Positions 1 to 5,684 of a stretch of 5,684 bases of DNA are shown here, piece after piece (position 1 is the stretch's first letter; each line of letters begins with the position of its first letter). Source of the DNA: a virus (Duplodnaviria > Heunggongvirae > Uroviricota > Caudoviricetes). Position numbers and translations under genes: made by a program. The notes below the pieces were generated by a model that worked only from the letters and a program-made list of their open reading frames with translations, was not told the DNA's origin and made no database searches. The DNA is taken from IMG/VR virus record IMGVR_UViG_2693429642_000007, positions 1 to 5,684 of that record; one strand, given 5' to 3'.

Positions 1-2
1 AG

Positions 3-218
3 ATACAGCGCGTATACGATGAAAATCACAAGGTATACGGTGTGCGTAAAGTCTGGCGTCAGTTGTTACGGGAAGGAATCAGGGTGGCCAGATGTACAGT
101 GGCACGTCTCATGGCGGTTATGGGACTTGCCGGTGTTCTCCGGGGTAAAAAGGTCCGTACGACCATCAGCCGGAAAGCCGTTGCCGCAGGCGACCGCGTA
201 AACCGTCAGTTCGTGGCC
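3..218 (+). mobile_element. Truncated IS3-family transposase OrfB fragment (N-terminal region only; enters from left edge, similarity ends near 218)
   Basis: Frame-3 translation from position 3 reads IQRVYDENHKVYGVRKVWRQLLREGIRVARCTVARLMAVMGLAGVLRGKKVRTTISRKAVAAGDRVNRQFVA, which fits the conserved N-terminal pattern of IS3-family OrfB transposases (YG.RK.W..L.REGI.V.R..V.RLM...GL.G..RGK...TT). After codon 216-218 the translation (SFAYTMVARS...) no longer resembles transposase, where I would expect the catalytic-domain continuation. No terminal inverted repeat is visible in the window. The listed ORF 42..341 is this fragment read through into unrelated sequence. Confidence 0.55.
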
Positions 219-505
219 TCATTCGCGTACACAATGGTCGCTCGCTCCAGATTGCGTCTGTATTCTTTCTGCTGCCAGATCACGTCCTGTGCCATGAACT
301 TAACTGGCTTAGCGTCTTCTATGCGCTCAGGCGTTTCGTGAGTACCTTTAGCCTGAATCTGCGCTCTGCTTAGAGTAGGGCGGTGTAATACTTCTGAACT
401 TATTGCTTCTTCGCGGGCCAGTACGCCGTTAGCTAATGCCTTTACCTTTAAACGCTCACGACGACGAGAACGTGAATTGCCTTTGAACTGAGTTCTGCGT
501 GTCAT
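206..505 (-). CDS. N: N-like transcription antitermination protein (99 aa), with arginine-rich motif near the N-terminus
   Basis: ORF MTRRTQFKGNSRSRRRERLKVKALANGVL... has an arginine-rich motif at residues ~9-25 resembling the boxB-binding ARM of lambdoid N proteins (P22 N type, GNAKTRRHERRRK, from memory). Size is N-like (~100 aa). AGGAGG lies 5 nt upstream of the ATG (plus-strand cctcct at 511-516). It sits downstream of a boxB hairpin and the candidate pL, in the position of N in lambda. The last ~4 codons and the stop (206-218) lie inside the IS-derived sequence. Confidence 0.6.
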   Translation of the reverse strand: MTRRTQFKGNSRSRRRERLKVKALANGVLAREEAISSEVLHRPTLSRAQIQAKGTHETPERIEDAKPVKFMAQDVIWQQKEYRRNLERATIVYANEATN

Positions 506-670
506 ATAGACCTCCTGATGAACTTTGGTGGTGTGGTAGGTGGGAGACCCATTTCGACCTGTTTCGGCCTACTTCAATTCGGCAATAGTCCCGCAGGCCT
601 CGCCGCTTTACGTGCGACATATTCCCGTCCATGAACCCTTCACCACACCCCAAAGTTCACTTTGGTTATT

Positions 671-685
671 GCGCTTTGTCAGCGC
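671..685 (-). promoter_or_regulatory. nutL boxB RNA hairpin (GCGCU-GACAA-AGCGC on the leftward transcript)
   Basis: Plus strand reads GCGCTTTGTCAGCGC, so the minus-strand transcript reads GCGCUGACAAAGCGC: a 5-bp stem with a GACAA pentaloop, matching my recollection of the P22-type boxB. It lies ~165 nt upstream of the N start and ~60 nt downstream of the candidate pL start. A convincing boxA was not found. Confidence 0.55.
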
Positions 686-753
686 CGTAGATTCATATTC
701 GAATCGTTGTATATTCACCGCCCTGGTGAGTAGTGCGTCCTGCTGATGGGTGA

Positions 754-797
754 ACTTTATCGGAATGATAAATTAATGGCAATAGCAAAATGATAAA
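754..797 (-). promoter_or_regulatory. Candidate pL promoter with OL operators (17-bp palindromic sites, consensus TTTATC-N5-GATAAA)
   Basis: On the minus strand: -35 TTGCCA (plus 777-782), 17-nt spacer, -10 TAAAGT (plus 754-759). A perfect palindromic 17-mer TTTATCGGAATGATAAA (756-772) overlaps the spacer and -10. A second site AATAGCAAAATGATAAA (781-797) lies just upstream of the -35. The layout is identical to the pR/OR1 arrangement at 3252-3280. A possible weaker third site is at 853-869. Confidence 0.45.
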
Positions 798-973
798 TTC
801 TCTTGGTTTTCAAATATCGTATTGATTCTTATGGTGTTTTATTTTGTTGTAGGAATTCGACAGGATAAATAAAGAGATTTGAGGGAGATCTGGATTGCGT
901 TGTTTAGCAAGTTGTATCTATCAGTTTTTCAATAAATACAATCGATTATGTGTTTTTAGGTGGGCGAACGTGG

Positions 974-1002
974 GGCAAAGAAAACCCGGCGCTGAGGCCG
1001 GG
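974..1002 (-). terminator. Rho-independent terminator ending the leftward cI-higB-higA-secB operon
   Basis: Inverted repeat CCCGGC-gctgag-GCCGGG at 985-1002. On the minus strand the hairpin is followed by TTTTCTTTG (plus-strand A-rich 976-984). It lies 10 nt downstream of the secB-like stop codon (1012-1014). Confidence 0.5.
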
Positions 1003-1011
1003 TGGGGAATT

Positions 1012-1416
1012 TCACTTATTACTGTTCGTTTCCATGGGATTGGCCAAGAAATCAAAATAAGGCAGAGTGAACCTACCAAGGTTTGACATGAGGATAATTT
1101 GCTCGGCATATGTTTTTATATAGGGATATGCCATATTGGGAGCAATGGACCTTACCTCATATGATTTTGCCATTTCATGAGAAAAATCATCTTCTGACCG
1201 GAAGTCAAAGTCGTATGTGATGTCCATCTCAAGCCTGCCTTCAATAGTTACGGAGGCAAAATATCTCACTCTAAATAGCTTTGAATCCTTCACATTAGTG
1301 TAAAGTTCATTATTTAGATTAACGGTTGTTTTTATGGATTTTTTTGCTGTTGAATCGCCTTCTAGCCGTGTCATAACCAAGCGTTCAACTTTTTTGCTAA
1401 TGAGTTCAATTTTCAT
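1012..1416 (-). CDS. SecB-like chaperone (134 aa), third gene of a toxin-antitoxin-chaperone (TAC) module
   Basis: The C-terminal half ...SIAPNMAYPYIKTYAEQIILMSNLGRFTLPYFDFLANP aligns by eye with E. coli SecB ...[36 protein letters not shown] (PN..[FY]PY.[RK]....G.F..L.L...FD). The N-terminal region has a beta-strand-like pattern comparable to SecB. Its start ATG (1414-1416) overlaps the stop of the upstream antitoxin gene as ATGA, indicating translational coupling. Confidence 0.65.
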   Translation of the reverse strand: MKIELISKKVERLVMTRLEGDSTAKKSIKTTVNLNNELYTNVKDSKLFRVRYFASVTIEGRLEMDITYDFDFRSEDDFSHEMAKSYEVRSIAPNMAYPYIKTYAEQIILMSNLGRFTLPYFDFLANPMETNSNK

Positions 1417-2069
1417 GGTAATAATAAGTAATTTCCGTCAGAAGTCATTTCGTCATTCAGGTTGCTAGCCGCTGTGAAACTTGATGACAAGTTACTTATC
1501 AAAGAAAAAACATTCCGTTTTTCTTTGCATTTGCCGTTACCCCTTACTGCGCTGAACAACATTTTTGAAAAGTAAGATTCTGTAGCCTTTTCAGCGAAAT
1601 AAGCAGAAGGTGATGTGACGGCTGACTCACACCGAGCAATGACGCTAGTCATGGCTGTTTCTTCTTCCTCTGCGTCAACTAGGCTCCATTCAATTGCGCT
1701 CATATCTTGAATTAAGATATCTGCAGGAATTCCAAGTCCGTCATGTAGTCTACGGATCATTGAAAGACTTAATGGACGCTTACGATTTAAGACCTCAGAT
1801 ACTTTAGATGCTGAGCCAATGTATTGTTTCATATCGGCATAAGAGAGGCCTTGTTGATCCATACGGAACTTGATTGCTTCTATGGGATCTGGCTTGTCCA
1901 TAGGGAACTCGCGTGACTCATAGTGCTCGATAAGCAAGCCTAGTAGTTCAAACTCATCAAAATCTTCAGTTCCAGGTTGTAAATCACTAGACGCAAGTTC
2001 AATGAGCCTTTCCATAGCTGCAGCATGCTCTTCACTATTTTTAATGATGCGCCAGCTAGTTCGATTCAT
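1413..2069 (-). CDS. higA: HigA-like HTH antitoxin (218 aa) with ~95-aa C-terminal extension (candidate chaperone-addiction region)
   Basis: Residues ~1-120 (...EAIKFRMDQQGLSYADMKQYIGSASKVSEVLNRKRPLSLSMIRRLHDGLGIPADILIQD) resemble E. coli HigA/YgjM-type antitoxins (HTH_XRE near the C-terminus of the conserved part). Canonical HigA ends about there, whereas this ORF continues ~95 aa (acidic linker DAEEEETAM, then a Ser/Phe-rich tail). Its start overlaps the higB stop as ATGA (2066-2069) and its stop overlaps the secB-like start as ATGA. Confidence 0.7.
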   Translation of the reverse strand: MNRTSWRIIKNSEEHAAAMERLIELASSDLQPGTEDFDEFELLGLLIEHYESREFPMDKPDPIEAIKFRMDQQGLSYADMKQYIGSASKVSEVLNRKRPLSLSMIRRLHDGLGIPADILIQDMSAIEWSLVDAEEEETAMTSVIARCESAVTSPSAYFAEKATESYFSKMLFSAVRGNGKCKEKRNVFSLISNLSSSFTAASNLNDEMTSDGNYLLLP

Positions 2070-2353
2070 TTAAGCCTCCACTTGTCGTACTCTGCATGAG
2101 TTCCAACTCTTTCAACTATGACCATTCCTGCCTGGTAAACAACTTGGACAACGAGCCGATAGTTATTGCCTTTTATATTAAAAATTACCCTGTTGTTAGG
2201 AAGGAAGTCGGCAGAATTAAATCTATTCCGTATGTCTTGAGTCGTTTTCCAGTTTTCTCTTATCACTTCATCATACCAAGAGTCTAAAGCCCCCTTGGCC
2301 TGATTGTGCTTCTGGCTAAAACTGTGAAGCTTCTCTACGTTTAAGACCTTCAT
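2066..2353 (-). CDS. higB: HigB-like toxin (RelE/ParE superfamily mRNA interferase, 95 aa)
   Basis: MKVLNVEKLHSFSQKHNQAKGALDSWYDEVIRENWKTTQDIRNRFNSADFLPNNRVIFNIKGNNYRLVVQVVYQAGMVIVERVGTHAEYDKWRLK aligns by eye along its length with E. coli HigB (YgjN): ...FNVGGNELRVVAMVFF...IREVMTHKEYD. The toxin-first gene order is typical of higBA. Confidence 0.75.
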   Translation of the reverse strand: MKVLNVEKLHSFSQKHNQAKGALDSWYDEVIRENWKTTQDIRNRFNSADFLPNNRVIFNIKGNNYRLVVQVVYQAGMVIVERVGTHAEYDKWRLK

Positions 2354-2375
2354 AATCCGATTTTGTTCCCTCTTT

Positions 2376-2407
2376 GGGAATTATAGATTCATTTCCCATA
2401 AAGGGAA
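2376..2407 (-). promoter_or_regulatory. Candidate internal promoter/operator for the higB-higA-secB module
   Basis: A perfect TATAAT on the minus strand (plus-strand attata at 2380-2385) lies ~27 nt upstream of the higB ATG. The -35 is poor. A perfect inverted repeat TTCCC-ATAAA-GGGAA (2393-2407) sits adjacent, with a further GGGAA half-site at 2376-2380; this is a plausible antitoxin operator. Confidence 0.3.
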
Positions 2408-2489
2408 TCTGTATTTTTATCCAGAAATGCTATGTACATCACCCAAACGTCTCTTCAGGCCACTGGTTACCAGCTATGTGACGATGAAG

Positions 2490-3194
2490 TCACGAACTTT
2501 TCAGCCACTCCCTTGCCTCGATGTCATCCAGATGGCGAGATTGCTTCAGAATACCAGCTACATACTCCACCTTTGCTACTTGATGATAAGGCAACGTTAT
2601 AGGCCTGTGATCCTGGTTAATGCTTGTAAATTGGTATTCTCCATCTCTGTCATAGCCAAGAACCTTAATCATGTTGTGTCCTTCAACGGTTCTGACAAAC
2701 ACCTCATCACCCGGGAATACTTTGGTGTTAGGCTCAATGAGTACATATTCTCCTGATTTTATTCTGGGCCACATGCTGTCTCCTTTCACACGAAGACCAA
2801 AGGCATCTGGATCATCGCTATAAATTTTGAGCCACCCATCGCGCTCTTCGGTCATCTCGATGGCACCATCAACACCAAGAATTGCCTCACCAACCACGCG
2901 CACTAACCCTTTTCTTACCTGACCGACAAAAGTTAAAGAATCTGAGAATGATGCAATTGGTGTTACATCATGTACCAAATCAAGCCACCCATTAGGTAAC
3001 CCAAGCGCGGCTTCAAATTTTCTTGCTAGTTTATCCCCTATGTTTCGAGTGCTTTTTTCACCGGAGACTTGCGTGAGTTGAGAAGGGCTAACCCCAAGCT
3101 TATCGGCAAAGCTTGCATTAGTGTTACCCGCGATTTTTTTATGCTCATCTAGCAAAAACGCCAGATTCGATTTGCGAATATCTTTGTTTTCCAT
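2490..3194 (-). CDS. cI: CI-type prophage repressor (N-terminal HTH, C-terminal S24/LexA-like peptidase domain; 234 aa)
   Basis: The N-terminus has an HTH (...FADKLGVSPSQLTQVSGEK...). The C-terminal domain has the S24 signature GDSMWP (Ser nucleophile) and a Lys ~37 residues later (MIKVLG). It is divergently arranged from the cro-like gene across an operator-rich intergenic region. A GAGGG RBS lies upstream of the ATG. Confidence 0.85.
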   Translation of the reverse strand: MENKDIRKSNLAFLLDEHKKIAGNTNASFADKLGVSPSQLTQVSGEKSTRNIGDKLARKFEAALGLPNGWLDLVHDVTPIASFSDSLTFVGQVRKGLVRVVGEAILGVDGAIEMTEERDGWLKIYSDDPDAFGLRVKGDSMWPRIKSGEYVLIEPNTKVFPGDEVFVRTVEGHNMIKVLGYDRDGEYQFTSINQDHRPITLPYHQVAKVEYVAGILKQSRHLDDIEAREWLKSS

Positions 3195-3307
3195 CTCACA
3201 ATTTTCCCTCTATTTAGCAAATGGATAAATACGCAATATGATAAATTTACATTGCGGTTGATTTATCAAAATGGTAAAGTTGTTCTGTGTGATAAACGGA
3301 GGCACTA
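3195..3307. promoter_or_regulatory. Immunity switch region: OR operators with divergent pRM (leftward) and pR (rightward)
   Basis: Repeated 17-mers share the GATAAA / TTTATC half-site: TTTAGCAAATGGATAAA (3213-3229), ATACGCAATATGATAAA (3229-3245, weak left half) and TTTATCAAAATGGTAAA (3263-3279). Candidate pR: -35 TTGCGG (3252-3257), 17-nt spacer, -10 TAAAGT (3275-3280), with the operator overlapping the -10 exactly as at pL. The cro RBS GGAGG is at 3298-3302. The pRM hexamers could not be placed confidently. Confidence 0.5.
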
Positions 3308-3541
3308 ATGAGTAATGAACTACTACGCTGGCGAAAAGAGGCTTCTAGCGAGGAATGGAAGCGACTCGCCGCATTAGCGAAAACTTCAGTTGGCTATCTT
3401 GACCAGATTGCATATGGATTTCGAAGAGCTTCCCCTGATAAAGCGAATGCAATCGAAGAAGCTACTCGTAATTTCACGGGTTATAAACCTGTGAAAAAGG
3501 AAAACCTAGTGTTCGTATCGCGTAGAGCATCGGCTGCATAA
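3308..3541 (+). CDS. cro: Cro-like small HTH regulator (77 aa), first gene of the rightward early operon
   Basis: Called by position: divergent from cI, immediately downstream of the OR/pR candidate, with GGAGG 5 nt upstream of the ATG. The protein is small and basic with an HTH-like stretch (LAALAKTSVGYLDQIAYG). It does not resemble lambda or P22 Cro from memory, so family assignment is uncertain. Confidence 0.55.
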   Translation: MSNELLRWRKEASSEEWKRLAALAKTSVGYLDQIAYGFRRASPDKANAIEEATRNFTGYKPVKKENLVFVSRRASAA

Positions 3542-3548
3542 GTAACAC

Positions 3549-3594
3549 CGCTATTTTCACAATGGACATTCGTCCTACGTCGCTGACAAAGCGA
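3549..3594 (+). promoter_or_regulatory. nutR: boxB hairpin UCGCU-GACAA-AGCGA (3580-3594) with a possible boxA-like CGCTATTT (3549-3556)
   Basis: TCGCTGACAAAGCGA has a 5-bp stem and the same GACAA loop as the nutL boxB at 671-685. It lies just downstream of the cro stop, as nutR does in lambdoid phages. The boxA assignment is weak: one mismatch to CGCTCTTT and an unusually long 24-nt spacer. Confidence 0.5.
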
Positions 3595-3623
3595 GTCCCA
3601 ATATATCTGACCAACTAAGGCCA

Positions 3624-3641
3624 TATGCGTTTCCACGCATA
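3624..3641 (+). terminator. Hairpin between cro and cII (possible tR1-like pause or terminator structure)
   Basis: TATGCGT-ttcc-ACGCATA is a perfect 7-bp stem with a 4-nt loop, followed by CCTTTCAAC, which is only weakly U-rich. tR1 is rho-dependent in lambda, so function is uncertain. Confidence 0.2.
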
Positions 3642-3679
3642 CCTTTCAACTAACTATTCACTATTGGAAATATTAAGAA

Positions 3680-4045
3680 ATGACACAAACAAGTTACAGC
3701 AAACTATCACAGCGTGACGTTGATCGCGCAGAAACAGATTTACTCATCAACCTATCAACGCTTACCCAGCGCGGTCTGGCAAAGATGATTGGCTGTCATG
3801 AATCGAAGATAAGCAGAACGGACTGGAGACTTACCCAGCGCGGTCTGGCAAAGATGATTGGCTGTCATGAATCGAAGATAAGCAGAACGGACTGGAGATT
3901 TATTGCTTCGGTCTTGTGTGCTTTCGGAATGGCATCAGACATCAGTCCGATTAGCAGGGCTTTTAAGTATGCGCTTGCTGAAATCACAAAGAAAAAACGC
4001 CCGGCGGCAACCGAGCGTTCTGAACAAATCCAGATGGAATTCTGA
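3680..4045 (+). CDS. cII: CII-like lysogeny-establishment activator (121 aa) containing an internal 23-aa tandem duplication
   Basis: The C-terminus ...[17 protein letters not shown] matches the lambda CII C-terminus as I recall it. The N-terminal and HTH regions are divergent from lambda. Without the duplication the length would be 98 aa, against 97 for lambda CII. Position after cro and nutR is as expected. Confidence 0.8.
3761..3898 (+). repeat. Perfect 69-bp direct tandem duplication (2 copies: 3761-3829 and 3830-3898) inside cII, in frame
   Basis: Both copies read cttacccagcgcggtctggcaaagatgattggctgtcatgaatcgaagataagcagaacggactggaga with no mismatch (checked base by base). This duplicates the peptide [23 protein letters not shown]. 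Confidence 0.95.
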
Positions 4046-4067
4046 GGGAATTACTGGATCAATCCAC
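3991..4067 (-). ncRNA. oop: OOP-like antisense RNA (candidate), with its terminator hairpin at 3998-4017 inside the cII 3' end
   Basis: On the minus strand CGCUCGG-UUGCCG-CCGGGCG (7-bp stem with one G-U) is followed by UUUUUU (plus-strand A run 3992-3997). This matches the lambda oop terminator arrangement, which is antisense to the cII 3' end. A CATAAT -10 on the minus strand (plus 4075-4080, overlapping the ATG at 4078) sits where lambda pO lies, but the -35 is poor. The 5' end is inferred by analogy only. Confidence 0.35.
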
Positions 4068-4077
4068 AGGAGTAATT

Positions 4078-4224
4078 ATGACAAAACAACTCAGTCCTTA
4101 CCAGGACAAAATTCACAAACACATACTACGTGATCGCTTCCTGTCCAGCTTCAAGCAGCCTGGTCGATTCCGGGCTGGGTTGGAAAAAGTGAAGCTGATG
4201 CAGAAGGAGAAAGGTCATGAGTAA
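4078..4224 (+). CDS. Small hypothetical protein (48 aa, basic) between cII and O
   Basis: ATG at 4078 is preceded by AGGAG (4068-4072) with 5-nt spacing. It reads [48 protein letters not shown], with stop TAA at 4222-4224 overlapping the O start by 8 nt. It is absent from the supplied ORF track, presumably because it is below the length cutoff. The start context matches the lambda O start region (caggagt.attATGACAAA) as I recall it. Confidence 0.35.
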
Positions 4225-5122
4225 TCTTGCAACCGTAACACATTTAAGGCCTTCACAACGGCCTGTGGAGCGTCGTGTGGCAGAAGTTGAAGATGGTTAT
4301 ACCCGTCTTGCAAATGCCCTGTATGAAGAGCTTATCGGCGCAGATTTAACGAAAAATCAGAGCAAGGTTGCCCACGCCATATGCCGTAAAACATACGGCT
4401 ACGGTAAAAAGATGGATCGCATCTCTGATAGTCAGTTAGCTCAAATTACCAGGCTGCCAAGACAGAAGGTAAACAAGGCCAAGAATGAGCTTATCGCGAT
4501 GAAGGTTATCCTTCGCGAAGGCCAGCAAATCGGGCCTAACAAGAACATCGAGGAATGGCAAATCGAAGGGTGTCACTACTCTGGTGATAATGTCACTGCA
4601 TTGGTGACAAAAAGTGTCACCAAAACGGTGACAGCGCTGTCACCAAAACAGGGACACACAAAAGAAACTATTACAAAAGAAAAAAGAAAAGATTATTCGT
4701 CCGAGAATTCTGGCGAATCCTCTGACCAGCCAGAAAACGATCTTTCTGTGGTTAAACCGGATGCTGCAATTCAGAGCGGCAGCAAGTGGGGAACAGCAGA
4801 AGACCTGACCGCCGCAGAGTGGATGTTTGACATGGTGAAGACCATCGCACCATCAGCCAGAAAACCGAATTTTGCAGGGTGGGCTAACGATATCCGCCTG
4901 ATGCGTGAACGTGACGGACGTAACCACCGCGATATGTGTGTGCTTTTCCGCTGGGCCTGCCAGGACAACTTCTGGTCCGGTAACGTGCTGAGTCCGGCCA
5001 AACTCCGCGACAAGTGGACCCAGCTCGAAATCAACCGTAACAAGCAACAGGCAGGCGTGACAGCCAGCAAACCAAAACCCGACCTGACAAACACTGACTG
5101 GATTTACGGGGTGGATTTATGA
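4217..5122 (+). CDS. O: O-like replication initiator protein (301 aa); divergent N-terminal iteron-binding domain, lambda-like C-terminal domain
   Basis: The N-terminus aligns with lambda O (..EDGYTRLAN.. vs ..DDGYARLSN.., GADLTK, RKTYG, MDRI.DSQL, GPNKNI.EW). The C-terminal ~110 aa ([101 protein letters not shown]) is essentially the lambda O C-terminus from memory. RBS AAGGAGAAAGG precedes the ATG. The stop overlaps the P start as ATGA. Confidence 0.9.
4571..4698. promoter_or_regulatory. Origin of replication within O: four 19-bp iterons (TGTCAC-N7-GTGACA type) followed by an AT-rich region
   Basis: Iterons are tgtcactactctggtgata (4571-4589), tgtcactgcattggtgaca (4591-4609), tgtcaccaaaacggtgaca (4615-4633) and tgtcaccaaaacagggaca (4638-4656). 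An AT-rich tract aaaagaaactattacaaaagaaaaaagaaaagattatt (~4657-4698) follows. This is the same architecture as the lambda ori (four iterons plus AT-rich region inside O), but with a different iteron sequence from the lambda TCCCTC...GAGGGA type. Confidence 0.7.
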
Positions 5123-5684
5123 AAAACATCGCCGCACAGATGGTTAACTTTGACCGTGAGCAGATGCGTCGGATCGCCAACAACATGCCGGAACAGTACG
5201 ACGAAAAGCCGCAGGTACAACAGGTAGCGCAGATCATCAACGGTGTGTTCAGCCAGTTACTGGCAACTTTCCCGGCGAGTCTGGCTAACCGGGACCAGAA
5301 CGAACTGAATGAAATCCGCCGCCAGTGGGTTCTGGCTTTCCGGGAAAACGGGATCACCTCGATGGAACAGGTTAACGCAGGAATGCGCGTAGCCCGTCGG
5401 CAGAATCGACCATTTCTTCCATCACCCGGGCAGTTTGTTGCATGGTGCCGGGAAGAAGCATCCGTTATCGCCGAACTGCCAAACGTCAGCGAGCTGGTTG
5501 ATATGGTTTACGAGTATTACCGGAAGCGTGGCCTGTATCCGGATGCAGAGTCTTATCCGTGGAAATCAAACGCGCACTACTGGCTGGTTACCAACCTGTA
5601 CCAGAACATGCGGGCCAATGCGCTGACTGACGCGGAATTACGGCGCAAGGCTGCCGATGAACTGACCTGTATGATAGCACGAAT
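5119..5684 (+). CDS. P: P-like replication protein (DnaB helicase loader), 5' partial: continues beyond the window end
   Basis: The ATG at 5119 overlaps the O stop. The translation [115 protein letters not shown]... closely matches lambda P as I recall it. The frame stays open to the window end (no stop), which is why it is missing from the ORF track. Confidence 0.9.
   Translation, partial: MKNIAAQMVNFDREQMRRIANNMPEQYDEKPQVQQVAQIINGVFSQLLATFPASLANRDQNELNEIRRQWVLAFRENGITSMEQVNAGMRVARRQNRPFLPSPGQFVAWCREEASVIAELPNVSELVDMVYEYYRKRGLYPDAESYPWKSNAHYWLVTNLYQNMRANALTDAELRRKAADELTCMIAR

Follow-up and report, generated by a model that had tools for sequence, protein, structure and literature searches.

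What became of the left end of a lambdoid prophage whose antiterminator gene N runs directly into the interior of an insertion sequence (IS)? This question is raised by a 5,684-bp stretch of viral DNA (IMG/VR record IMGVR_UViG_2693429642_000007, positions 1 to 5,684; hereafter the window), which is the entire draft contig CDQY01000435.1 of assembly GCA_000941535.1 and is recorded in two samples. A first-pass annotation of its first 218 nucleotides (nt) had proposed that an IS3-family transposase fragment is joined to the 3' end of N and that the prophage left arm was probably deleted in the process. We located the joint to the nucleotide and compared both of its sides with known elements, with Shiga toxin (Stx) phages and with closely related draft assemblies. 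The joint is best described as a single non-transpositional rearrangement, most simply a deletion, which comes closest to that first reading and which we hold with evenly divided confidence. The features that carry this argument are the following:

217..218, no strand: novel joint between IS629 nt 754 and the last base of N codon 96 (four-way alignment; base-by-base comparison)
1..217, plus strand: internal fragment of IS629/IS1203 (IS3 family), IS nt 538-754 of 1310 (alignment to the IS1203 copy of genome L001; Pfam HTH_21)
218..505, minus strand: codons 1-96 of the antiterminator gene N (H-19B/933W type), all native (BLAST to Stx phages; PHROG 271)
206..217, minus strand: IS-derived tail of the N open reading frame (ORF), GCC-ACG-AAC (Ala-Thr-Asn) followed by a TGA stop, antisense to the transposase frame
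206..505, minus strand: chimeric truncated N ORF of 99 amino acids (aa), N residues 1-96 plus ATN (ORF list; alignment with full-length N)

The IS side was identified by an ungapped alignment of window positions 1-217 to the IS1203 copy in L001 (6001-6217), with three mismatches in 217 positions (98.6% identity) that are clustered at window positions 29, 30 and 35. The L001 element extends from 5464 (TGAACCGCCCCGG...) to 6773 (...CCGGGGCGGTTCA), is 1310 bp long and has TTT on either flank; from these limits it follows that the window holds IS nt 538-754. Identity amounts to 98.6% with IS1203 (L001 and L004), 99.1% with annotated IS629 copies and 99.5% with the best copy, and the CA..A variant of the window is common to copies annotated as IS629. 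Across 3572 complete E. coli genomes, approximately 22,700 IS629 places match window positions 1-217, the best at 99.5% and none identically. Frame 3 of the window corresponds to OrfB residues 54-125, with HTH_21 (60 bits) as its sole Pfam domain. The homology ends at position 217, which confirms that the IS itself is truncated at the junction. The first-pass annotation was correct that the transposase translation stops here, but not that it stops mid-domain: in the domain map of full-length OrfB, the rve/DDE core covers residues 126-222, and the window breaks off within codon 125, just before it. The break therefore lies at a domain boundary and removes the whole catalytic core. Within the window, the fragment is devoid of OrfA, the frameshift site, the DDE (rve) core and both terminal repeats. 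A search for the IS629 terminal inverted repeats (TGAACCGCCCCGG...) with up to three mismatches gave no match to either end anywhere in the window. The right IS end is certainly absent, because N begins at position 218; the missing terminus on the left is uninformative, because the window is the entire contig. The single IS flank in the window abuts the interior of the IS.

At the joint, the window reads ...GTGGC/CTCATT... (the slash marks the boundary), where an uninterrupted IS would continue with AGAACG after nt 754 and the native N gene has ...TCCAAA before CTCATT. There is zero microhomology, as C217 belongs only to the IS and C218 only to N. BLAST against 5426 complete E. coli genomes and 50,697 phage records gave no contiguous match to the joint, and exact-joint searches (23-36 nt) yielded no match in the GTDB representative genomes, IMG/VR or the JGI metagenomes. 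We infer that the joint is real. A standard transposase-made adjacent deletion retains an IS end. As neither IS end is present at the joint, it was not made by standard transposition. IS3-family ends finish in CA. The idea that the IS part of the window terminates at a pseudo-end was rejected on this basis, since it ends in ...GTGGC with the next A missing. A group II intron as the cause of the break was rejected as well: the intron in the IS629 copy of E. coli AR_0013 sits at IS nt 795, 41 bp from the window break. That copy (L013, 3258-5520) is interrupted by the intron, which encodes ltrA, and is unrelated to the joint.

On the other side, the N region from position 218 rightwards has 99.2% identity to 933W and many Stx phages, and the N ORF matches PHROG 271 ('anti-termination protein N-like', 5.5e-21). 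N is the first gene of the leftward operon beside the immunity region and is transcribed away from cI. Intact N is composed of 127 aa (L002 5905-6288; H-19B AAD04643.1). Residues 1-96 of the window ORF are identical to H-19B N (AAD04643.1) at 91 of 96 positions (five differences) and to the common 933W-type allele at 93 of 96, the private changes being A21V, I68V and A90T together with one synonymous change. The window ORF shares the arginine-rich motif RSRRRER (residues 12-18) with the H-19B record. Residues 97-127, in contrast, are lost, with 31 residues replaced by three foreign ones. N homologues with 65-98% identity are 120-129 aa long, and their C-terminal sequence GVCLPxVALYAAGxRKSKQxTAR, which is nearly invariant in the ten that were aligned, is absent from the window. 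Correspondingly, the Pfam family N_peptide (PF25694) scores 18.2 bits for the window ORF, below the cut-off of 27.9, versus 57.5 bits for full-length N. None of the full-length homologues ends in ATN, so the proposed replacement of the native C-terminus holds. The proposed IS origin of the final codons also holds, with a small correction: the tail is made of three codons and a stop at 206-217, rather than about four codons and a stop at 206-218. The 99-aa chimeric product is on record from the window contig only, and a PDB sequence search with the N profile returned a chance match only.

The consequence for N can be predicted from its characterized relative. In H-19B N, the arginine-rich motif 12-RSRRRER-18 binds nut, and the binding site of the C-terminal domain on RNA polymerase lies close to the RNA exit channel (PMC3526286). 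The deletion mutant H-19B N delta96-127 gives 17.8% read-through at nutR/tR1, a nut-proximal Rho terminator, versus 34.2% for the wild type, and 1.4% versus 31.8% at the distal trpt' terminator (PMC3526286 Table 1); C-terminal-domain deletions of H-19B N are also defective at intrinsic terminators (PMC3526286). By analogy, N(1-96)+ATN should behave like this mutant, with prophage induction crippled. It would still bind nut RNA and NusA and thereby partly block Rho at the nut-proximal terminator, and it would not convert RNA polymerase to the termination-resistant form needed for distal terminators. Delayed-early and late expression in both arms would then fail, and prophage induction too. In addition, whatever followed N is no longer attached to pL in the window.

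To date the event, sister contigs are informative. They were found via a look-up of the 121-aa CII protein of the window, which returned four further draft assemblies of the same accession series. The window cII ORF (3680-4045, plus strand) carries a perfect 69-bp tandem duplication at 3761-3898, which is in-frame, so that a 23-residue helix-turn-helix segment is present twice and CII comprises 121 aa versus the normal 98 aa. The sisters L007, L009, L010 and L011 have the duplication too, whereas the 99.97%-identical L014 and L015 lack it; we regard it as a probable second lesion of this prophage lineage. Contig L009 (recorded in three samples) matches window 218-4952 without a difference in 4735 nt (100.000% identity), private N substitutions and cII duplication included, and left of the position equivalent to 218 it continues with native N codons 97-109 up to the contig end. 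A full-length N with exactly the private allele is on record (protein P0135), which further supports the altered C-terminus in the window. From position 218 rightwards, the contigs that encode it (L017, L019 and L021-L023) match the window at 100% identity, and their 127-aa N is intact. Past N, L017 continues with Nmad5 (207 aa), DUF2528, cIII and kil, followed by the right end of an IS600, and no IS629 is present in it over 1855 nt downstream of N. Because identical sisters have native N past the joint, the fusion of IS and N is very recent and private to one or two isolates of the clonal group. Being recent and private, the truncated-N joint can serve as a strain marker.

The DNA behind N is also rearranged in several relatives. 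In sister L019 (CDRA01000559.1, 3228/3229), N is intact, but Nmad5 passes at approximately codon 16, through a blunt joint, into the interior of chromosomal yjjV; this is the second joint in the clonal group without an IS end or microhomology. In L014 (10446-12400; GCA_010686555.1) and L015 (11109-11175), both 99.97% identical to the window, N and Nmad5 are followed by IS1 (InsA) and then yafO-yafN-dinB, so that their left arm has already been lost, by a different route. In L018 and L020, an IS600 left end lies beyond Nmad5, about 832 nt from the N stop, and the IS600 right end that follows kil in L017 lies at 5180-5380. IS600, IS1 and IS629 together indicate an IS-rich host background. In complete genomes and in phage AP012531.1, IS629/IS1203 copies lie behind N, at 12 nt (L006), 67 nt (L001, also phage Stx2a_F422) and 157 nt (L004) from its stop codon, and each of them is convergent with N like the IS part of the window. 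These positions suggest a preferred IS629 insertion zone and orientation behind N. In L006 (JNE132847), the genes from DUF2528 to exo are missing beside IS629.

N itself is interrupted elsewhere too. An unrelated sample (L024 3286-3315; Logan SRR3715455_412), which shares the cI-HigB-HigA-134aa module and has the consensus N allele, carries an IS600 whose left end (TGAGGTAGCCTGAG...) directly follows N codon 96, within one nucleotide of the window break. This IS600 insertion is absent from the complete E. coli genomes; codon 96 may be a target hotspot of IS3-family elements, or the match may be a coincidence. Other chimeric or truncated N proteins in public assemblies include P0110, in which read-through from an IS629 right end is fused to N residues 40-127, and P0112, in which N1-93 is fused to a DUF551 protein. 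Further truncated products with foreign tails retain N1-85, N1-86, N1-89 or N1-108 (among P0110, P0112, P0114, P0117, P0133 and P0012). N is thus repeatedly hit in the course of prophage decay.

How, then, did the joint arise? The proposed mechanism is a single break-and-join outside transposition (by end joining or illegitimate recombination, perhaps in the course of an aberrant excision of IS629), in which N codon 96 would have been joined to a same-orientation IS629 copy lying further left, at least 1.9 kb away. The locus would thereby have lost the 3' end of N and, at a minimum, the genes proximal to pL. Deletions adjacent to IS629, from a few nt to more than 40 kb, occur in enterohaemorrhagic E. 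coli (Kusumoto et al. 2011, summarised in PMC9943667 and 10.1101/2023.06.07.543989). A single rearrangement of this kind is consistent with the lack of IS629 close to N in the sisters and with the large blunt deletions that occur in the group, where loss of the left arm is common (yjjV in L019, IS1 by yafO in L014 and L015, IS600 in L017, L018 and L020). The loss of the recombination genes, kil, xis and int that the first-pass annotation suggested is plausible but unproven, the left arm being unseen because the contig ends 217 nt into the IS. A larger deletion is mildly favoured by the sisters, which have N127-Nmad5-DUF2528-cIII-kil and no IS629 within 1.86 kb; the genomes with IS629 12-157 nt behind N and an intact left arm make a local event that keeps the left arm possible.

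Several points weigh against a single large deletion. We infer it from one joint, in a contig that ends at position 1, and the 217 nt of IS sequence form the very end of a draft contig whose assembly series is fragmented and partly redundant. No IS629 copy was located in any sister contig to act as the rearrangement partner. Being blunt and free of microhomology, the joint is consistent neither with the IEE model (PMC9943667) nor with microhomology-mediated end joining. On the functional side, the prediction for N draws on a 95%-identical protein and leaves the three private substitutions and the ATN tail out of account.

The alternative that survives best is a local two-step event with the left arm kept, in which IS629 would have inserted in or just behind N, convergent with it, followed by a loss of about 0.6-0.8 kb that took the right half of the IS with or without the 3' end of N. 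The window can indeed be derived from the arrangements in L006, L001 and L004 by deletions of 664, 719 and 809 bp, respectively, and IS629 is found inserted inside N in P0110. The IS600 directly after codon 96 in L024 belongs to the same family, although this coincidence came from a look-up able to return only events at codon 96. A blunt joint exactly at the former IS terminus is also what the sloppy-strand-transfer model of IS629 deletions predicts (10.1101/2023.06.07.543989). Nevertheless, two events are needed, IS629 is missing from all ten related contigs that span N and the DNA behind it, and an intact IS629 right end abutting the sequence at window position 218 is absent from the three collections searched. 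Moreover, no record exists of the 96-aa product that such an insertion would yield from the private allele, and the matches with the consensus allele are partial proteins at contig ends (an effect of the query), with the exception of L024. We therefore regard a local origin as possible but rather unlikely.

In its sharpest form, the local two-step event would have begun with IS629 inserting at an IS3-family target hotspot exactly after codon 96. Its right end would then have attacked its own interior at nt 754 in a partial excision, deleting nt 755-1310 and bringing nt 754 bluntly against the old flank, so that the joint would be a natural footprint of aberrant strand transfer. We consider this improbable. 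If true, it would provide evidence from a natural isolate for the disputed 'sloppy strand transfer' route to IS629 deletions, and it would leave a natural N without its C-terminal region, occupying nut without modifying RNA polymerase.

An assembly artefact, in which the terminal 217 nt would derive from chimeric reads, scaffolding or gap closing while N of the strain is intact like that of the sisters, would explain why the IS part is exactly terminal and why the joint is unique across every collection searched. The length of 217 nt resembles the contig overlaps of 209-219 nt among the sisters, the assemblies are highly fragmented, with contig numbers that reach above 2600, and some of their content is redundant (L017 and L023 belong to a single assembly), and a second odd blunt joint (Nmad5 to yjjV) is found in a sister assembly. 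On the other hand, the identical 5684-bp contig is recorded in two samples, and no sequence is common to both sides of the joint, so that a graph assembler would have no k-mer for the mis-join. The IS fragment is identical to none of the roughly 22,700 IS629 places, which fits a real copy, although it is not proof of one. Taken together, an artefact seems unlikely. The distances between single-nucleotide polymorphisms and contig ends (28 nt for the IS side of the window but 59 nt for L009) did not give a consistent estimate of the assembler k, and no conclusion is drawn from them.

Equally, the joint could be one of the two joints of an inversion or translocation, with the pL-operon genes persisting elsewhere in the genome. 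A single joint is visible, and in relatives the segment lies beside yjjV (L019) or yafO-dinB (L014), i.e., large rearrangements occur in the group. Deletions are nevertheless the commoner outcome and are seen in relatives, which makes an inversion or translocation a doubtful explanation.

The remainder of the window provides the context of the fusion, with two further features next to the joint:

3..341, plus strand: open frame of the transposase fragment that crosses the joint into DNA antisense to N, with 41 non-native residues and a stop at 339-341
506..1011, minus strand: leader upstream of N, where pL/nutL are expected by position; intact and collinear with Stx-phage relatives

The first of these, the chimeric transposase frame, is called at 42-341 in the ORF list and at 3-341 in the gene call of the contig (99-112 aa), with its Pfam match confined to residues 1-50. 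It is a predicted ORF only, a by-product of the fusion. Within the leader, positions 506-746 have 99% identity to relatives; an Rfam scan of the window matched no family.

From left to right, the window comprises the IS fragment, N (minus strand), a 134-aa gene (minus), a gene for a 218-aa helix-turn-helix protein (minus), HigB (minus), an S24/LexA-type cI (minus), cro (plus), cII (plus), a DUF2740 gene, O and the start of P. The order N, 134aa, HigA, HigB, cI, cro, cII, O, P is collinear with the O26-type Stx prophage L002 and with H-19B. Identity amounts to 98.4% with H-19B over window 646-3828 (AF034975; cI with 234 aa and cro with 77 aa are equal in length), 98.9% with L002 over 218-3833 and 99.1% with L001 over 218-746. 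The window thus holds the immunity region of the Stx1 phage H-19B. Window 4089-4643, which covers the DUF2740 gene and the 5' part of O, has no megablast-level alignment to the O26-type or H-19B relatives and is identical in L014 and the sister contigs; O has 301 aa in the window and 312 aa in L002. This segment is an ordinary mosaic exchange of the replication-origin module.

The genes between N and cI form a module in which HigB matches a toxin family (PF09907 HigB_toxin, 104 bits). The 218-aa helix-turn-helix protein (1413-2069, minus strand) matches HTH_3 with 20.9 bits, below the 23-bit cut-off, and an identical protein is called HigA family by RefSeq in some genomes. The 134-aa protein (1012-1416, minus strand) has no Pfam, NCBIfam or PDB sequence match and belongs to phrog_10298, of unknown function. 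Its single-sequence structural model is of low confidence (predicted local distance difference test score, pLDDT, of 56) and has a SecB-like order of four strands and two helices (beta4-alpha2). A Foldseek search with this model gave no match at E<=0.001, SecB and Rv1957 ranking 42 and 45 with E of about 0.5, and BLASTP against E. coli SecB gave a weak local match (E=0.02) with a PN..PY motif. A toxin-antitoxin-chaperone reading of the 134-aa gene is possible but unproven. The proteins cI, cro, HigB, the 218-aa protein and the 134-aa protein show 0-1 residue differences from the O26 Stx-phage relative, and in intact Stx phages the cI-HigB-HigA-134aa module makes up the normal immunity region of the H-19B type.

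That the immunity region and the toxin-antitoxin(-chaperone) module are kept by selection as domesticated cargo of a defective prophage, as the first-pass annotation also proposed, is highly improbable and lacks support: cI, cro, HigB, HigA and the 134-aa gene are intact and the second lesion, in cII, affects a gene dispensable to an established lysogen, but the same module is standard in complete phages, the truncation is younger than a sister contig without a single difference across 4735 nt, so that intactness needs no selection and the event is too recent to infer any, and it is unproven that the third gene encodes a chaperone.

On the N evidence alone, the prophage is likely defective, and the duplication within the helix-turn-helix of CII reinforces this. 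We thus describe a decaying prophage in an IS-rich strain, an instance of the IS-associated decay of lambdoid (H-19B-type) prophages, which is a well-known process and not a new kind of system; as a new instance of known prophage decay, it leaves current understanding unchanged. Its value lies in the details. The locus provides a natural equivalent of a characterized N truncation, which bears on whether such a prophage is inducible or releases toxin genes, and IS-mediated deletions do not typically leave a blunt joint inside the IS, so that this one could help to shape models of how IS629 excises aberrantly.

Compared with known systems, the locus resembles each in part. It is like IS629/IS1203 in its 98.6-99.5% identity over 217 nt, its OrfB frame and its HTH_21 domain, whereas it holds only nt 538-754, without the right terminal repeat, the DDE core or a visible target duplication, and its right-hand break lies inside the element and not at an IS end. 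Its N is like that of H-19B and 933W in residues 1-96, in 12-RSRRRER-18 and in its position and orientation beside an H-19B-type cI; it differs in lacking the RNA-polymerase-binding C-terminal region, with ATN instead, and in falling below the Pfam cut-off. The laboratory mutant H-19B N delta96-127 is truncated within one residue of the same point and is 95% identical over residues 1-96, while the natural allele has three private substitutions and a three-residue foreign tail. In the IS-truncated lambdoid left arms of JNE132847 (L006) and GCA_010686555.1 (L014), an IS likewise abuts N or the next gene and pL-operon genes are missing, but these have an intact IS end as boundary and a full-length N. 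As with the IS629-associated deletions of enterohaemorrhagic E. coli, IS629 adjoins a structural polymorphism that distinguishes near-identical strains. Finally, in IEE-promoted IS629 excision, microhomologies of 4-6 nt are joined in vitro (PMC9943667), whereas here half of the IS persists, the joint lies inside the IS and the microhomology is 0 nt.

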